From Dictyostelium discoideum (lineage: Eukaryota), in NCBI GenBank assembly GCA_000004695.1, contig CM000150.2, positions 704,001 to 768,000 of the forward strand: a stretch of DNA of 64,000 bases. Direction: 5' to 3'. A model generated the notes under the pieces. The model saw only the letters and a list, made by a program, of their open reading frames with translations. It did no database searches and had not been told where the DNA came from. The position numbers and the translations under genes were made by a program. This document shows, piece by piece, positions 30,093 through 37,306 of the stretch; the first letter of the stretch is position 1; the number at the start of each line of letters is the position of its first letter.

Positions 30093-30177
30093 TTGGATAA
30101 CGCAATTATTAGTTGCTTCTCCTTGAGATGCTAGATCTCATTTTAGTTTTTTACAGGGTCTCTAAAAGAGGGGTTAG

Positions 30178-30214
<37 letters not shown>

Positions 30215-30448
30215 TTTCAAATTTTGAATTGTATTATTACTTTTGATTAAAACATCTTTTTTGTCCAAACTTTTTTCTAAATCTTTTTTTATTTTATCGT
30301 CTGGCGACAGTATGGCGGGTCTTGAAGTTGGGTGCGACGGGTCTTGAAGGGTTAAAGCAAAAATCTCCTTGGACATCAATATATTATAATTCTTTTTTTT
30401 TTTTTAATAACATCACTCAATTTGAGTGTGTTTTAGGAGAGTTTATTT

Positions 30449-30496
<48 letters not shown>

Positions 30497-33328: not shown

Positions 33329-36300
33329 GCTCAAAAATCAACTTTATAACATGGAATTGTAGAGGATTCACTGAAAACCCAAACAATCAACACAATTCCT
33401 ACCAAAAAGCTGTTGACACACTACAACTACTTATATCAAAACTTCCACCTCGTCCAACAATCTCAATACTCACTGAACTCAATTCATCACCATTACAACT
33501 TAAACATGATTTTCCCGATCACATCATCTCTGTCACCAAACGAGGAAATGGTGTAATCATCATTAACCATAACCCAAACACACTCAAACTCAAACACATA
33601 TCAACAATTGATGGTAGAGCTATTTTAGCAGACGTTATATTTCCAAATCAATTACCAATTGGTATTCTTGGAATTTACGCACCAGCATCAAATAATACCA
33701 TCAAAAAGAATTCATATGCAACTTCACTACAAACACTTCTCCACAACCACTCAACAAACCCAATACCAAACCAATCCCAACATGTATCTATTATCGCAGG
33801 AGATTTCAACTGTATCCACAACGACAATTCACTATTAGATGATATTATCCAATCCTACACATACCAACACCATCTAATTGATCAAGGTGAATTTAAAAAC
33901 ACTCCAACTCATACACATGGCAACAGATTAGATAGAATATATACTCAATACAATAGAATAGACCCTGAAAATATATATACACAAGTCCACCAAATTCCAT
34001 CTTCATTATCAGATCATAATCCAATATCAACAACAATTTCTTCACCTTTTCAAATAAATAAACATAAGAAAAGATGGATATTATCACCTGGTACTGCAAA
34101 TGACCATGAAGCAATCAATATTATCAATCATTTAATAACTAATCACAATAACACATCAATCAATCAATTTACAAACTGGTCAAAAGTAAAATCAAAAATT
34201 ATAAAAACTCTAAAAAACTATCAATATAACAAAGACAAACAAACTCAACGTGCAAAACAAATACTATTAGAAAAAGCAGCAAAATTCAAACATCTTGAAG
34301 AACAATGCATCGCTGAATACAATATTATATGTAACAAAAACAAACTACATCAAAACCACACAAACATATTAAAAAAACATATAAATGGAGAAATACCTAG
34401 CAAGTATCTATCAGCAATACTAAACAAAAGATCAAAAGATGCAAAAATTGAATCAATCCAATATGGTAACATCATTACATCCGACCCCGACCAAATTGAA
34501 AATGCGTTTGTTGAATTCTACACAAATCTATATAGCTTACAAATATGTTGTCCAATTACTCACCAGCTCATGCCAAACACATGGCCCATCATAAAAAATG
34601 AATATTGGAATGGTTTAGACTCACCATTTATACAAGATGAAGTTGAAGCTGCAATTAAAACCTGTAACCCCAACAAATCACCCGGTCCAGATGGCGTTAC
34701 AAATGCATTCTACATTAATCATTTAAACCAAGTTAAACCAATTCTCACTACATTATTCAACGATATACTAGAAAATCCTCACCACATCACAACAGAATTC
34801 ACAGAAGGTCTTATACACACAATATACAAGAAAGGCAACCCCTTACTCATATCAAATCGTCGTCCCATTACACTTCTAAACACTGATTACAAGATCCTCT
34901 CAAAAGTAATCAATGCACGTCTTCTGAGAATACTTCCTTTCATCATCAACAACAACCAAACTGGTTTCGTACCCCACAGATTCATCATAGACAACATCAT
35001 CAACATCAATGAATTAATCAACTACCTCAAATCTAAAAACCTCCCTGGTATCATCACACTATTTGACTTCTTTAAAGCATTTGATTCTATCTCTCACGAT
35101 AGCATTAAAAGAACATTAATTCATATTGGTATACCAATAAAATTAATAAATTTAATCCACAAGCTATTATCTGACTCACAAGCAAAAATTTCAATTAATG
35201 GTAAAACGACCAGAAAATTCGATATTAAAAGAGGTGTAAAACAAGGTGACCCAATCTCAGCCACTTTATTTGTAATTGTAATTGAAATATTAGCAAGAAC
35301 AATAAATGCAGACAATTCAATAATTGGATTACCAATTTCACCCAATCCACAAATTAAAATTAAATTTACCCAATTTGCAGACGACTCTACAACATACAAC
35401 ATCAACTACGAACAACAACAACAATCAATCAAACATTTCGATAATTTCTGCGCTTCAACATCATCATCATTAAATTTTGACAAAAGTGCAATAATAGAAA
35501 TCAACCCCCACAAAATCACTGATAAACACATAATAAACAACATTCCACAATCAAAAAGAATACCAATAACCAAAAAAGATCAATCAGAAAGAGTTCTTGG
35601 CTATTTCTTTAATCATAATGGTTTACATAGGAAATTACCAGAAACAATGAAAACACTGATTAAATCATTAGTGCTATGGAAAACTAGTGGCACAACATTA
35701 AAAACAAAAACAACCATCATAAACACCTACTCACTATCACCAATAACATATTTATCATACCTTGAAGAATTTACAAAAGATGAAGAAATTCAAATTAATA
35801 AATTAATCTCATGGTTTATGAATTCTCCCGCAAATTCTGAATCACCAACTCTCGATACCAATTCCATTGAAAAAAACACATCAACCATCCATTCACGTGC
35901 AAAAATACCTTTGATGTGTTATGATAGATCATTAAAACCATTAAAAGAAGGTGGTTGGGGTATGTGGAATATACAATTACGACAAGTTGCTCAAAAGATT
36001 TGGATATACAACAGATTTTTACAAATGCATAAATCTGCAAACAATTCAATATACATGATAAGTTGGATGGATCAAATCATCAACAAATCAATCTCTTCTC
36101 CATACCTTATAAAAATCAAAAAAGAATGGGAAAACTATGCAACTCAAATTGGACATCTAAAAGATAAAGTTCAAATCCTACAACCAATATTAACAAAAAA
36201 CCAACCCTCTCAAACATTAAACACAAATAATATTTCACTACCACCAACACTCAAAGAAATCTACTCGACAATACTAAACAATCACCAATGCAAATCAAAA

Positions 36301-37152
36301 GACTATATTGGCAAGAAATATTCAGATCTACTTCTTACTTCGCACCAACAATCAATACAACTATTATGGAAATACACATACGACCAACTTTTTGTCAAAA
36401 TTCAAAAATTAAAAGATCCAAAAGGCCGAGATACAATGCAAAGATTCCATGCTAGATGTCTTCCGATTAATCATCTACACAACAAAGTTTGCCCCATTTG
36501 CAACAATGAAATGAATAATGATCCCTATGGTCATTTGTTCTTCAATTGTCAGCACACAATCAACTTCATTAACCACGACAAATTAAAATATTTTATATAT
36601 AAAAATTGCAATGGAAACAAAAACTGGTCACTAACAAAAAACCAAACAACAAAATTATACACACTCATTTATAAACCACAAACAAACAACAAAGCATTTA
36701 AACCAGATCCAACTATCAATATTAATTTTCATTTTGCAGAAAACGCACAATATAAAAAATACAGGTTCAACTGGAATTATATAAACACAAATCTTGATCT
36801 AGTCAGAACACATGCATATTGGAACATAATCTCATTAGTTATTCAACAAATATGGATATGGTTATGCAAATCATTATTTGACATCAATATAACTCAATCA
36901 ATTGATAATTGGAACAACCAAATAAACAACACAACACTAGATTATGATATATTAAAATCAAAATGGCACAAGCTAATAAGATTGGAATATTCAAGAACTT
37001 TATCAAACTTTAACCAATACTCAATTAAAAACAACCTCACAAAAACTCAAAAAGAAACCCAATGGTCCGAAACCATCAAAAAATTTAAAAAAGAATGGAG
37101 CATAAACACAAATGAACCAATTCCAACAATTACACCACCAATTAATTATTAA
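33325..37152 (+). CDS. TRE3-type element ORF2 (1275 aa): apurinic-like endonuclease, reverse transcriptase and Cys-rich domain. Intact
   Basis: Motifs listed in the parent mobile-element feature. Single uninterrupted frame. Confidence 0.85.
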   Translation: MSSKINFITWNCRGFTENPNNQHNSYQKAVDTLQLLISKLPPRPTISILTELNSSPLQLKHDFPDHIISVTKRGNGVIIINHNPNTLKLKHISTIDGRAILADVIFPNQLPIGILGIYAPASNNTIKKNSYATSLQTLLHNHSTNPIPNQSQHVSIIAGDFNCIHNDNSLLDDIIQSYTYQHHLIDQGEFKNTPTHTHGNRLDRIYTQYNRIDPENIYTQVHQIPSSLSDHNPISTTISSPFQINKHKKRWILSPGTANDHEAINIINHLITNHNNTSINQFTNWSKVKSKIIKTLKNYQYNKDKQTQRAKQILLEKAAKFKHLEEQCIAEYNIICNKNKLHQNHTNILKKHINGEIPSKYLSAILNKRSKDAKIESIQYGNIITSDPDQIENAFVEFYTNLYSLQICCPITHQLMPNTWPIIKNEYWNGLDSPFIQDEVEAAIKTCNPNKSPGPDGVTNAFYINHLNQVKPILTTLFNDILENPHHITTEFTEGLIHTIYKKGNPLLISNRRPITLLNTDYKILSKVINARLLRILPFIINNNQTGFVPHRFIIDNIININELINYLKSKNLPGIITLFDFFKAFDSISHDSIKRTLIHIGIPIKLINLIHKLLSDSQAKISINGKTTRKFDIKRGVKQGDPISATLFVIVIEILARTINADNSIIGLPISPNPQIKIKFTQFADDSTTYNINYEQQQQSIKHFDNFCASTSSSLNFDKSAIIEINPHKITDKHIINNIPQSKRIPITKKDQSERVLGYFFNHNGLHRKLPETMKTLIKSLVLWKTSGTTLKTKTTIINTYSLSPITYLSYLEEFTKDEEIQINKLISWFMNSPANSESPTLDTNSIEKNTSTIHSRAKIPLMCYDRSLKPLKEGGWGMWNIQLRQVAQKIWIYNRFLQMHKSANNSIYMISWMDQIINKSISSPYLIKIKKEWENYATQIGHLKDKVQILQPILTKNQPSQTLNTNNISLPPTLKEIYSTILNNHQCKSKDYIGKKYSDLLLTSHQQSIQLLWKYTYDQLFVKIQKLKDPKGRDTMQRFHARCLPINHLHNKVCPICNNEMNNDPYGHLFFNCQHTINFINHDKLKYFIYKNCNGNKNWSLTKNQTTKLYTLIYKPQTNNKAFKPDPTININFHFAENAQYKKYRFNWNYINTNLDLVRTHAYWNIISLVIQQIWIWLCKSLFDINITQSIDNWNNQINNTTLDYDILKSKWHKLIRLEYSRTLSNFNQYSIKNNLTKTQKETQWSETIKKFKKEWSINTNEPIPTITPPINY

Positions 37153-37293
37153 TTACCTAATCTAAAATAACATACTATTTTAAATTCACAAAAACTAAAA
37201 AACCTAAAATAAATAAATAAAAATAACATACTAATTGTATACTACAATAGTTTATTTATATCAAAAAAAAAAAAAAAAAATAAATCGGGTCAA

Positions 37294-37306
37294 GTGTTCG
37301 ATTCTT
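37294..37306 (+). promoter_or_regulatory. Putative external B-box (exB; GTGTTCGATTC) of the tRNA-Thr gene, now separated from the gene by the 5.3-kb TRE3 insertion
   Basis: B-box-like GTTCGAtTC motif. It would lie ~35 bp downstream of the tRNA if the element (31988..37280) were removed. Analogous to the exB box seen downstream of tRNA-Asn. Confidence 0.45.

Follow-up and report, generated by a model that had tools for sequence, protein, structure and literature searches.

TRE elements around a tRNA-Thr gene of Dictyostelium discoideum: a TRE3-B-type insertion between the gene and a credible external B box

A TRE cluster at a tRNA-Thr gene

How have retrotransposons come to sit on both sides of one tRNA-Thr gene of Dictyostelium discoideum, and where do they leave the external B box (exB) downstream of it? 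Within the window (the whole stretch of DNA that was analysed, 64 kb long), the tRNA-Thr locus carries a TRE5-A fragment upstream and two TRE3 elements in tandem downstream; the flanking gene DDB_G0267740 (strain AX4) is single-copy. The locus is very probably an ordinary TRE cluster of the kind typical for D. discoideum tRNA genes. Its arrangement follows a pattern that has already been published, with TRE3 at internal or external B boxes and TREs in tandem, and contains nothing new. Its importance beyond annotation is limited, but it clearly illustrates the use of internal and external B boxes and tandem stacking at tRNA genes. The original prediction of a tRNA-Thr gene colonised by TRE-type elements agrees with the architecture and orientation of these elements and with their recurrent association with tRNA genes at further loci. 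The gene and its boxes are as follows.

31884-31955, + strand: tRNA-Thr(AGT) gene (ARAGORN)
31934-31943, + strand: internal B box AGTTCGATCC of tRNA-Thr (B-box scan)
31955-31964, + strand: T10 run, the Pol III terminator of tRNA-Thr (from the sequence)
37289-37304, + strand: putative exB GTCAAGTGTTCGATTC, which fits the consensus GTCnnnnGTTCRAnYC (PMC3159450)
37296-37304, + strand: core GTTCGATTC of the putative exB

The TRE5-A-type fragment upstream

The upstream element is a remnant of TRE5-A, formerly known as DRE, with the following parts.

30093-31833, - strand: TRE5-A-type fragment, 5'-truncated and internally deleted, head-to-head with tRNA-Thr
30093 to ~30392, - strand: C-module-like 3' end and tail
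30393-30615, - strand: B-module-like copy
30616-31692, - strand: frameshifted C-terminal remnant of ORF2, CCHC finger included (translation has CHSCKEEESSMHIFFEC)
31693 to ~31833, - strand: second, partial B-module-like copy

Homology with alleles that lack the TRE3 elements (L007 and L008, see below) places the start of the native tRNA-upstream flank at ~31834 and the 5' junction of the fragment at ~31822-31834. As this junction lies within (TTA)n, the 5' boundary is uncertain by ~12 bp, and no target-site duplication (TSD) of the fragment could be fixed, both candidates (ATTTTATTT and TATTATTATTTTATTT) being in low-complexity (TTA)n. [quoted passage not shown] The predicted TRE5-type fragment in head-to-head orientation is upheld, but the ~35 bp given for its distance was ~15 bp off.

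The fragment resembles TRE5-A in its ORF2 C-terminus with a CCHC finger and perhaps in its modules: a B-like module of ~150-220 bp is present twice, and a conserved, C-like module at the 3' end is found again beside other tRNA genes, both being named by resemblance. It differs in its order of parts, reading partial B, the last ~1 kb of ORF2, B and C, and is thereby unlike both full-length TRE5-A.1 (AB-ORF1/ORF2-BC) and TRE5-A.2 as described (AB-ORF1-BC). A fragment in L005 is 96% identical to it and lies ahead of a tRNA-Thr paralogue at a distance of 46 bp, copies upstream of tRNA-Asn and tRNA-Lys are 87-94% identical, and a related fragment in L001 lies ~56 bp upstream of tRNA-Lys.

Two downstream elements that fit TRE3-B and TRE3-A

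The elements downstream of the gene fit TRE3-B (formerly RED) and TRE3-A (formerly Tdd-3). Their features, together with an older fragment next to the second element, are listed in order.

31975-31987, + strand: 5' copy of the 13-bp TSD TAAATCGGGTCAA (homologue single-copy in L007 and L008)
31988-37280, + strand: TRE3-B-type non-LTR retrotransposon, 5293 bp (from ORFs, domains, tail and TSD)
31988-32119, + strand: its 5' UTR
32120-33328, + strand: its ORF1, 402 aa
33325-37152, + strand: its ORF2, 1275 aa, in the -1 frame, with APE, RT and CCHC finger
37263-37280, + strand: its A18 tail, after the 3' UTR
37281-37293, + strand: 3' copy of the 13-bp TSD TAAATCGGGTCAA
37331-37339, + strand: 5' copy of the 9-bp TSD ATATTGCCA of the next element
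37340-42602, + strand: TRE3-A-type non-LTR retrotransposon (from ORFs, domains, tail and TSD)
37516-38766, + strand: its ORF1, 416 aa
38766-41540 and 41393-42469, + strand: its ORF2, split, with CCHC finger (1-nt A-run deletion at ~41511)
42573 to ~42602, + strand: its A-tail, about A30
42603-42611, + strand: 3' copy of the 9-bp TSD ATATTGCCA
42612-42877, + strand: older fragment of ~233 bp that ends in poly(A) (A33) and has the TRE3-like 3' end ...ACAATATT(A)n

Both elements have TRE3 non-LTR architecture: two ORFs, the second of which (ORF2) is in the -1 frame and has the order APE, RT, zinc finger (CPICNNEMNNDPYGHLFFNC and CPLCKEDMSKDPYGHLFFSC), a poly(A) tail (A18 and about A30) and a TSD of variable length (13 bp and 9 bp). 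Exo_endo_phos and RVT_1 domains were found in both ORF2 products. The two ORFs of the TRE3-B-type element are intact, and a stop/start overlap (ATGA) forms their junction. The bodies of the elements (5275 bp and 5233 bp) differ by no more than 4 bp from the consensus lengths published for TRE3-B (5279 bp) and TRE3-A (5229 bp; PMC5006619 Table 1). The ORF2 proteins are ~40% identical to each other, which bears out the prediction of two different subfamilies, and in protein clusters the TRE3-A type is the larger (79 members vs 13+29). The data fit 31988-37280 as TRE3-B and 37340-42602 as TRE3-A, names assigned by length, relative copy number and behaviour and not by alignment to a named consensus; subfamily primers or tables were not found in the Spaller 2016 supplement or the TRE papers searched. 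The second element had been predicted to begin at 37320, ~20 bp from its actual start at 37340, which is given by its TSD ATATTGCCA.

TRE3 elements recur downstream of tRNA genes. The L001 copy downstream of tRNA-Lys is 99.3% identical to the TRE3-B-type element of the window, and further copies of the latter, in the same orientation, lie downstream of tRNA-Gln (L003) and of a tRNA-Thr paralogue (L004). The L005 copies are 99% identical to the TRE3-A-type element, a 3' fragment of which is also found downstream of tRNA-Asn. Three other copies have 25 nt of additional 5' UTR that the TRE3-B-type element of the window lacks; it is "full-length", as had been claimed, in coding capacity and by the published consensus length, but 25 nt short of those three.

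[quoted passage not shown] The published distances range from 34 to 188 bp in TRE3-B and from 14 to 228 bp in TRE3-A (PMC5006619 Table 1). In the restored locus, the TRE3-A-type element is 79 nt from the tRNA end. The 5' end of the TRE3-B-type element follows T10 after 22 nt and the tRNA 3' end after 32 nt; the latter distance is a low extreme, marginally under the published minimum of 34 bp, perhaps on account of how the tRNA end is defined. The predicted distance of 20 bp reaches the TSD but not the 5' end of the element; its predicted orientation, the same as that of the gene, is correct.

Empty-site alleles and the displaced exB

The 13-mer TAAATCGGGTCAA occurs exactly twice in the window, as exact repeats, one directly before the TRE3-B-type element and the other directly after its A18 tail. 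In L007 and L008, two diverged assemblies labelled D. discoideum, its homologue is present once and is followed directly by GTGTTCGATTC; tRNA gene (100% identical in L007 to the window copy), spacer and exB are contiguous there, and the homologue of the TRE3-A TSD (TATAGCCA) is single-copy as well. Because the 13-mer homologue is single in these empty alleles, the repeat stems from the target and is no part of the element's ends, and the perfect 13-bp TSD that had been proposed is genuine. Excision in silico recreates a sequence that actually exists in two alleles, and the unoccupied site, which the original prediction had suggested looking for across strains, is now on record in public assemblies. 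The filled arrangement is shared by an independent assembly (L006) at 99.6% identity and with identical junctions, and the tandem is therefore not a mis-join.

According to published work, exB lies ~41 bp downstream in 66% of tRNA genes and has the consensus GTCnnnnGTTCRAnYC (PMC3159450). The B-box scan matched TGTTCGATTC at 37295-37304, and the pattern here is GTC-N4-GTTCGATTC, which the restored sequence has ~35 nt downstream of the tRNA gene, as do L007 and L008, in both of which the core is conserved. By published consensus and position, the motif is a credible exB, as had been proposed. In this allele it differs from other Dictyostelium exB boxes in being 5.3 kb from its gene, with the TRE3-B-type element between the two, again as predicted. 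The GTC of the extended consensus is within the 5' TSD copy (31983-31985); with part of the extended sequence in the TSD, exB was rebuilt intact at the 3' side of TRE3-B, 5.3 kb away. The effect of this displacement on tRNA-Thr transcription is probably small.

Order of the two TRE3 insertions

The original prediction had the downstream TRE3 inserting first and the element at 31988 second. This chronology is not implied by the structure. TREs stack as TRE-TRE tandems without insertion into one another (PMC5391098), and here too the two elements have separate target sites and neither disrupts its neighbour. L007 and L008 have neither of the two, and the close assembly L006 has both. The description of the TRE3-A-type element as "older, frameshifted" is weak, its sole frameshift being the 1-nt deletion in an A-run (A6) at 41511, which neither two other TRE3-A copies nor the L006 version of this locus have. 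Furthermore, the TRE3-A interior of the AX4 reference is ~40-fold more different from another assembly than its flanks are, so that it is unsafe to judge the "age" of TRE copies in the reference by their frameshifts; the interior has 31 clustered substitutions and signs of repeat mis-assembly or gene conversion. Dating by private substitutions gave no clear difference between the two TRE3s: TRE3-B has 1.9 per kb, and TRE3-A, for which there were fewer comparators, has 3.3 per kb. What does predate both full-length TRE3 insertions is the fragment at 42612-42877, since L007 and L008, with their empty sites, retain it in a partly deleted form.

These observations leave some room for the reverse order, in which TRE3-B inserted first and displaced exB, and TRE3-A was later attracted by the orphaned box as a stand-alone TFIIIC site. 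The separate and uninterrupted target sites, the joint absence and presence of the elements among the assemblies, the similar private substitutions and the lack of the frameshift in L006 are all compatible with it, and isolated B boxes are known targets of TRE5-A (PMC3159450). On the other hand, the tRNA-proximal member of a TRE tandem is usually held to be the younger, the ORFs of TRE3-B are intact, its 13-bp TSD is perfect and only 2 differences separate it from the L006 copy, and recruitment of TFIIIC or TRE3 by an exB 5 kb from the tRNA gene would add an unsupported step. We regard the reverse order as possible but doubtful. That the displaced exB is an autonomous TFIIIC site comparable to the ETC (extra TFIIIC) sites of yeast, and that it drew TRE3-A in 35 nt downstream after TRE3-B had separated it from the gene, seems improbable to us. 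If this were true, exB boxes would be stand-alone TRE3 targets. The intact displaced exB is a natural test case for TFIIIC binding by exB alone.

Which B box positioned the insertions

Involvement of TFIIIC has been shown experimentally for TRE5-A and is a proposal for TRE3. By analogy with that proposal, TRE3-A may have been guided by TFIIIC on exB, its 5' end being 35 nt past the box. TRE3-B would have integrated by target-primed reverse transcription, with TFIIIC at the internal B box as its likely guide, a choice of box that we infer from distances at only about five junctions. At four of these (L003, L004, the TRE3-A-type element of the window and the tRNA-Asn fragment) the 5' ends are 29-38 nt past exB, and the insertion point of the TRE3-B-type element in the window is 44 nt downstream of the internal B box, with only 2 nt between it and the exB core.

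This last position, upstream of exB rather than downstream, might instead suggest that TRE3-B was placed by a factor bound to exB, on the upstream side of the complex that forms there. The juxtaposition is unusually tight, the TSD stopping 2 nt before the GTTCGATTC core and holding the GTC signature. However, at all other junctions examined the TRE3 5' end is 29-38 nt downstream of a B box and never upstream of one, and 44 nt from the internal B box roughly fits this rule. Placement by exB is quite unlikely, and guidance by the internal B box is the reading that we prefer for TRE3-B.

There is next to no chance that the 13-mer is part of the ends of the element, or that the tandem arose in assembly, with no true insertion between tRNA gene and exB: apart from the signs of mis-assembly or gene conversion inside TRE3-A, nothing favours such a reading, the flanks differ at other copies of the element, and it is refuted by the empty-site alleles, with their single 13-mer homologue, and countered by the same junctions in the independent L006.

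Two minor observations may be added. A B-box-like sequence, GGTTCGATTA, is present at 42683-42692, inside the older fragment. A TRE3 ORF2 of the window is 100% identical to DDB_G0291958.

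Insertion of a TRE3 element between tRNA-Thr and its external B box

In the window, a TRE3 non-LTR retrotransposon (first element, here TRE3-B) lies between tRNA-Thr(AGT) and an external B box (exB), with a second TRE3 (TRE3-A) beyond exB and a TRE5 fragment on the other side of the tRNA gene.

Features of the locus and of the neighboring tRNA-Asn gene
30093-31833 (-), TRE5-A-type fragment (TRE5 fragment below)
31884-31955 (+), tRNA-Thr(AGT), from ARAGORN
31955-31964, T10 run after tRNA-Thr, from the sequence
31988-37280 (+), TRE3-B
32120-33328, TRE3-B ORF1, 402 aa
33325-37152, TRE3-B ORF2, 1275 aa
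37263-37280, A18 tail of TRE3-B
37295-37304, B-box motif TGTTCGATTC, after the second 13-mer copy
37340-42602 (+), TRE3-A
42612-42877, short fragment ending in poly(A), also present in the empty alleles
45994-46003, exB of tRNA-Asn, GGTTCGACTC
46032-46106 (-), tRNA-Asn(GTT), convergent

There are exactly two copies of the 13-mer TAAATCGGGTCAA in the whole 64-kb window; one (31975-31987) adjoins the first base of the 5293-bp element and the other (37281-37293) adjoins its A18 tail. ORF1 and ORF2 of TRE3-B overlap by ATGA, with ORF2 in the -1 frame, and ORF2 encodes Exo_endo_phos and RVT_1 domains and a C-terminal CCHC finger (CPICNNEMNNDPYGHLFFNC); it is 100% identical to the AX4 protein DDB_G0291958, itself a repeat copy and so no guide to where the window comes from. 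The element had been called full-length, which holds for its coding capacity, but 25 nt of 5' UTR (GAAAAACAAAAAACCGAAAAAACAA) found in three other copies are missing.

The flanking gene (42953-45568, minus strand), single-copy and 100% identical to AX4 DDB_G0267740, assigns the window to the published reference genome. For comparison, we used its orthologues in three further public assemblies labelled D. discoideum. One (L006, GCA_054883475.1) aligns collinearly to the window (99.6% identity) and carries the same filled arrangement, so the tandem is not a mis-join. In the other two (L007, GCA_054859385.1; L008, GCA_054859355.1), the flanks are 92-94% identical to the window, both full-length TRE3s are missing, and only ~230 bp lie between tRNA-Thr and the end of flanking-gene homology. 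These empty alleles read ggagcc-tttt-acaaaaggtctaaatgggaacaa-GTGTTCGATTC-ttttaaaagcaaaataataatttattattttactgtatagccaaattgataa... (L007) and ...aaaggctttaatcgggacaa-GTGTTCGATTC... (L008). In both, tRNA-Thr, a single homologue of the 13-mer and the B-box motif are contiguous, the last two joined directly, as expected from the original prediction of an insertion between tRNA-Thr and the B box; tatagccaaattg, homologous to the flank of the second element, is likewise single-copy. Because its homologue occurs once in the empty alleles, the 13-mer is target DNA, and its reading as a target-site duplication (TSD) stands. That it belongs to the element termini is ruled out by this single copy together with the unrelated flanks of other TRE3-B copies.

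Those copies, 97-99% identical to TRE3-B and in the same orientation, lie downstream of tRNA-Lys (L001), tRNA-Gln (L003) and a tRNA-Thr paralogue (L004). The tRNA-Lys copy (L001 3808-3868 and 9158-9247) has a 17-bp TSD, TTTTAGTATTACCAAAA, followed, ahead of the usual 5' UTR, by a B-box-like motif, GGTTCAAATCCCA, which may be an exB brought along from the source locus by 5' transduction. The target site of this copy was hit three times.

The assemblies with empty alleles, though labelled D. discoideum, encode an 871-aa protein only 90% identical to AX4, and could belong to a highly diverged lineage or to a sibling species. Downstream of the cluster (48963-59979) are ABC transporter genes of the PDR/ABCG and ABCA types, with conserved synteny in all assemblies. 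A 173-bp direct repeat (83% identity; 43572-43744, within the DDB_G0267740 coding region, and 45672-45844, just upstream of the gene) is also present in L006 and L007.

External B box, targeting and effect on tRNA-Thr

In D. discoideum, 66% of tRNA genes have an exB, with consensus GTCnnnnGTTCRAnYC, ~41 bp downstream (PMC3159450). The restored motif, GTC-AAGT-GTTCGATTC, agrees with this consensus, and its core starts ~35 nt past the tRNA-Thr 3' end in the restored sequence and the empty alleles alike, which bears out its proposed identity as exB. Comparable boxes occur at +28 to +30 of tRNA-Thr paralogues (L004, L005), tRNA-Gln (L003) and tRNA-Asn (window). Since the GTC lies inside the TSD, the whole motif was re-formed at 37289-37304; exB is therefore intact in the window allele, moved 5.3 kb from tRNA-Thr.

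The TSD, poly(A) tail, APE and RT domains and empty site, all present for TRE3-B, are signatures of target-primed reverse transcription. The target would have been chosen via a B-box-bound Pol III factor, a mode of targeting that the literature consulted demonstrates experimentally for TRE5-A only (PMC3159450). TRE3 can target the internal box B or exB, and its broad window of 40-150 bp is attributed to either box being usable (PMC5911963); the small sample of five junctions below fits this.

Distances from B boxes to TRE3 5' ends
TRE3-B, window: internal B box, 44 nt (32 nt beyond the tRNA end)
TRE3-A, window: exB, 35 nt (79 nt beyond the tRNA end, restored locus)
TRE3-A fragment downstream of tRNA-Asn: exB of that gene, 34 nt
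TRE3-B, L003: exB, 29 nt
TRE3-B, L004: exB, 32-38 nt

With 32 nt, the window copy lies at the very bottom of the 34-188 bp published for TRE3-B (PMC5006619). The effect of the insertion on tRNA-Thr is probably small, because the element lies 22 nt beyond the terminator and has left the tRNA gene itself unaltered, and because an exB is absent from one third of tRNA genes.

The second TRE3 and the order of insertions

The ORF2 proteins of the two TRE3s are ~40% identical, in line with their proposed placement in different subfamilies. Body lengths are 5275 bp (first) and 5233 bp (second, 37340-42572), compared with 5279 bp in the published TRE3-B consensus and 5229 bp in that of TRE3-A (PMC5006619 Table 1), and the TRE3-A-type protein cluster is larger than the TRE3-B-type, agreeing with published copy numbers (67 vs. 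43). The first element is thus most likely TRE3-B and the second TRE3-A, the letters being taken from body length and protein-cluster size rather than alignment to named references. TRE3-A starts at 37340 (TGATAAAAAAACCCGTACCGCG, as in the L005 copy), not at 37320 as originally placed, and adjoins a TSD, ATATTGCCA, at 37331-37339 and 42603-42611.

Fragment 42612-42877, being common to the empty alleles, is the oldest and predates both full-length TRE3s. It contains a B-box-like GGTTCGATTA (42683-42692) and a ~60-bp stretch resembling sequence downstream of TRE3-A in L005. The original prediction placed TRE3-A before TRE3-B; this order is unproven, as the two occupy separate target sites, share an identical presence/absence pattern across assemblies and have similar densities of private substitutions. 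Nor does the TRE3-A frameshift indicate age: it is a single A6 vs. A7 difference at 41511, which is not shared by two other TRE3-A copies or by the L006 allele of this locus. Over 22.7 kb, window and L006 differ by 36 substitutions, and 31 of them fall, as the frameshift does, in a cluster inside TRE3-A (38332-41545), with divergence of ~1% vs. ~0.03% in the flanks. Such clustering speaks for mis-assembly of the repeat in one of the assemblies, or for gene conversion, rather than for age.

TRE5 fragment and the tRNA-Asn region

As predicted, the TRE5 fragment faces tRNA-Thr head-to-head, lying on the minus strand. Its spacing had been put at ~35 bp; homology between window and empty alleles reaches ~31834, which places its 5' end ~50 bp upstream of tRNA-Thr (46-61 bp given the (TTA)n junction), the canonical distance. 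Related fragments also precede a tRNA-Thr paralogue in L005, at 46 bp, and tRNA-Lys in L001, at ~56 bp. In order, the fragment at tRNA-Thr in the window comprises a partial B-like module, the final ~1 kb of ORF2 (CCHC finger, frameshift), a B-like module and a C-like module; with the partial B-like module joined directly to the ORF2 end, this unusual structure fits neither TRE5-A.1 nor TRE5-A.2 (PMC3159450). The junction of B-like module and ORF2 falls at a shared GAATTATAAT.

The original observation is real and was accurate on excision, TSD, exB and different subfamilies; to be corrected are the TRE3-A start and the TRE5 5' end, and its order of insertions is unproven. Both phenomenon and genome are already described; TRE-TRE tandems without mutual disruption, and TRE5 plus TRE3 at one tRNA gene (13% of genes), are published (PMC5391098, PMC5006619).

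Near tRNA-Asn, ~134 bp of a 5'-truncated TRE3-A 3' end plus tail (~45814-45959) is flanked by TTAATTTTTAA and is missing from L007. Upstream of this gene (46141-47266), GTATGTAAAAA occurs three times (46141, 47022, 47256) vs. 0.34 expected by chance; the copies bracket a succession of TRE5-type fragments that end in poly(A), two being C-module ends. The pattern looks like serial insertions into one target site ~35-50 bp upstream of tRNA-Asn.
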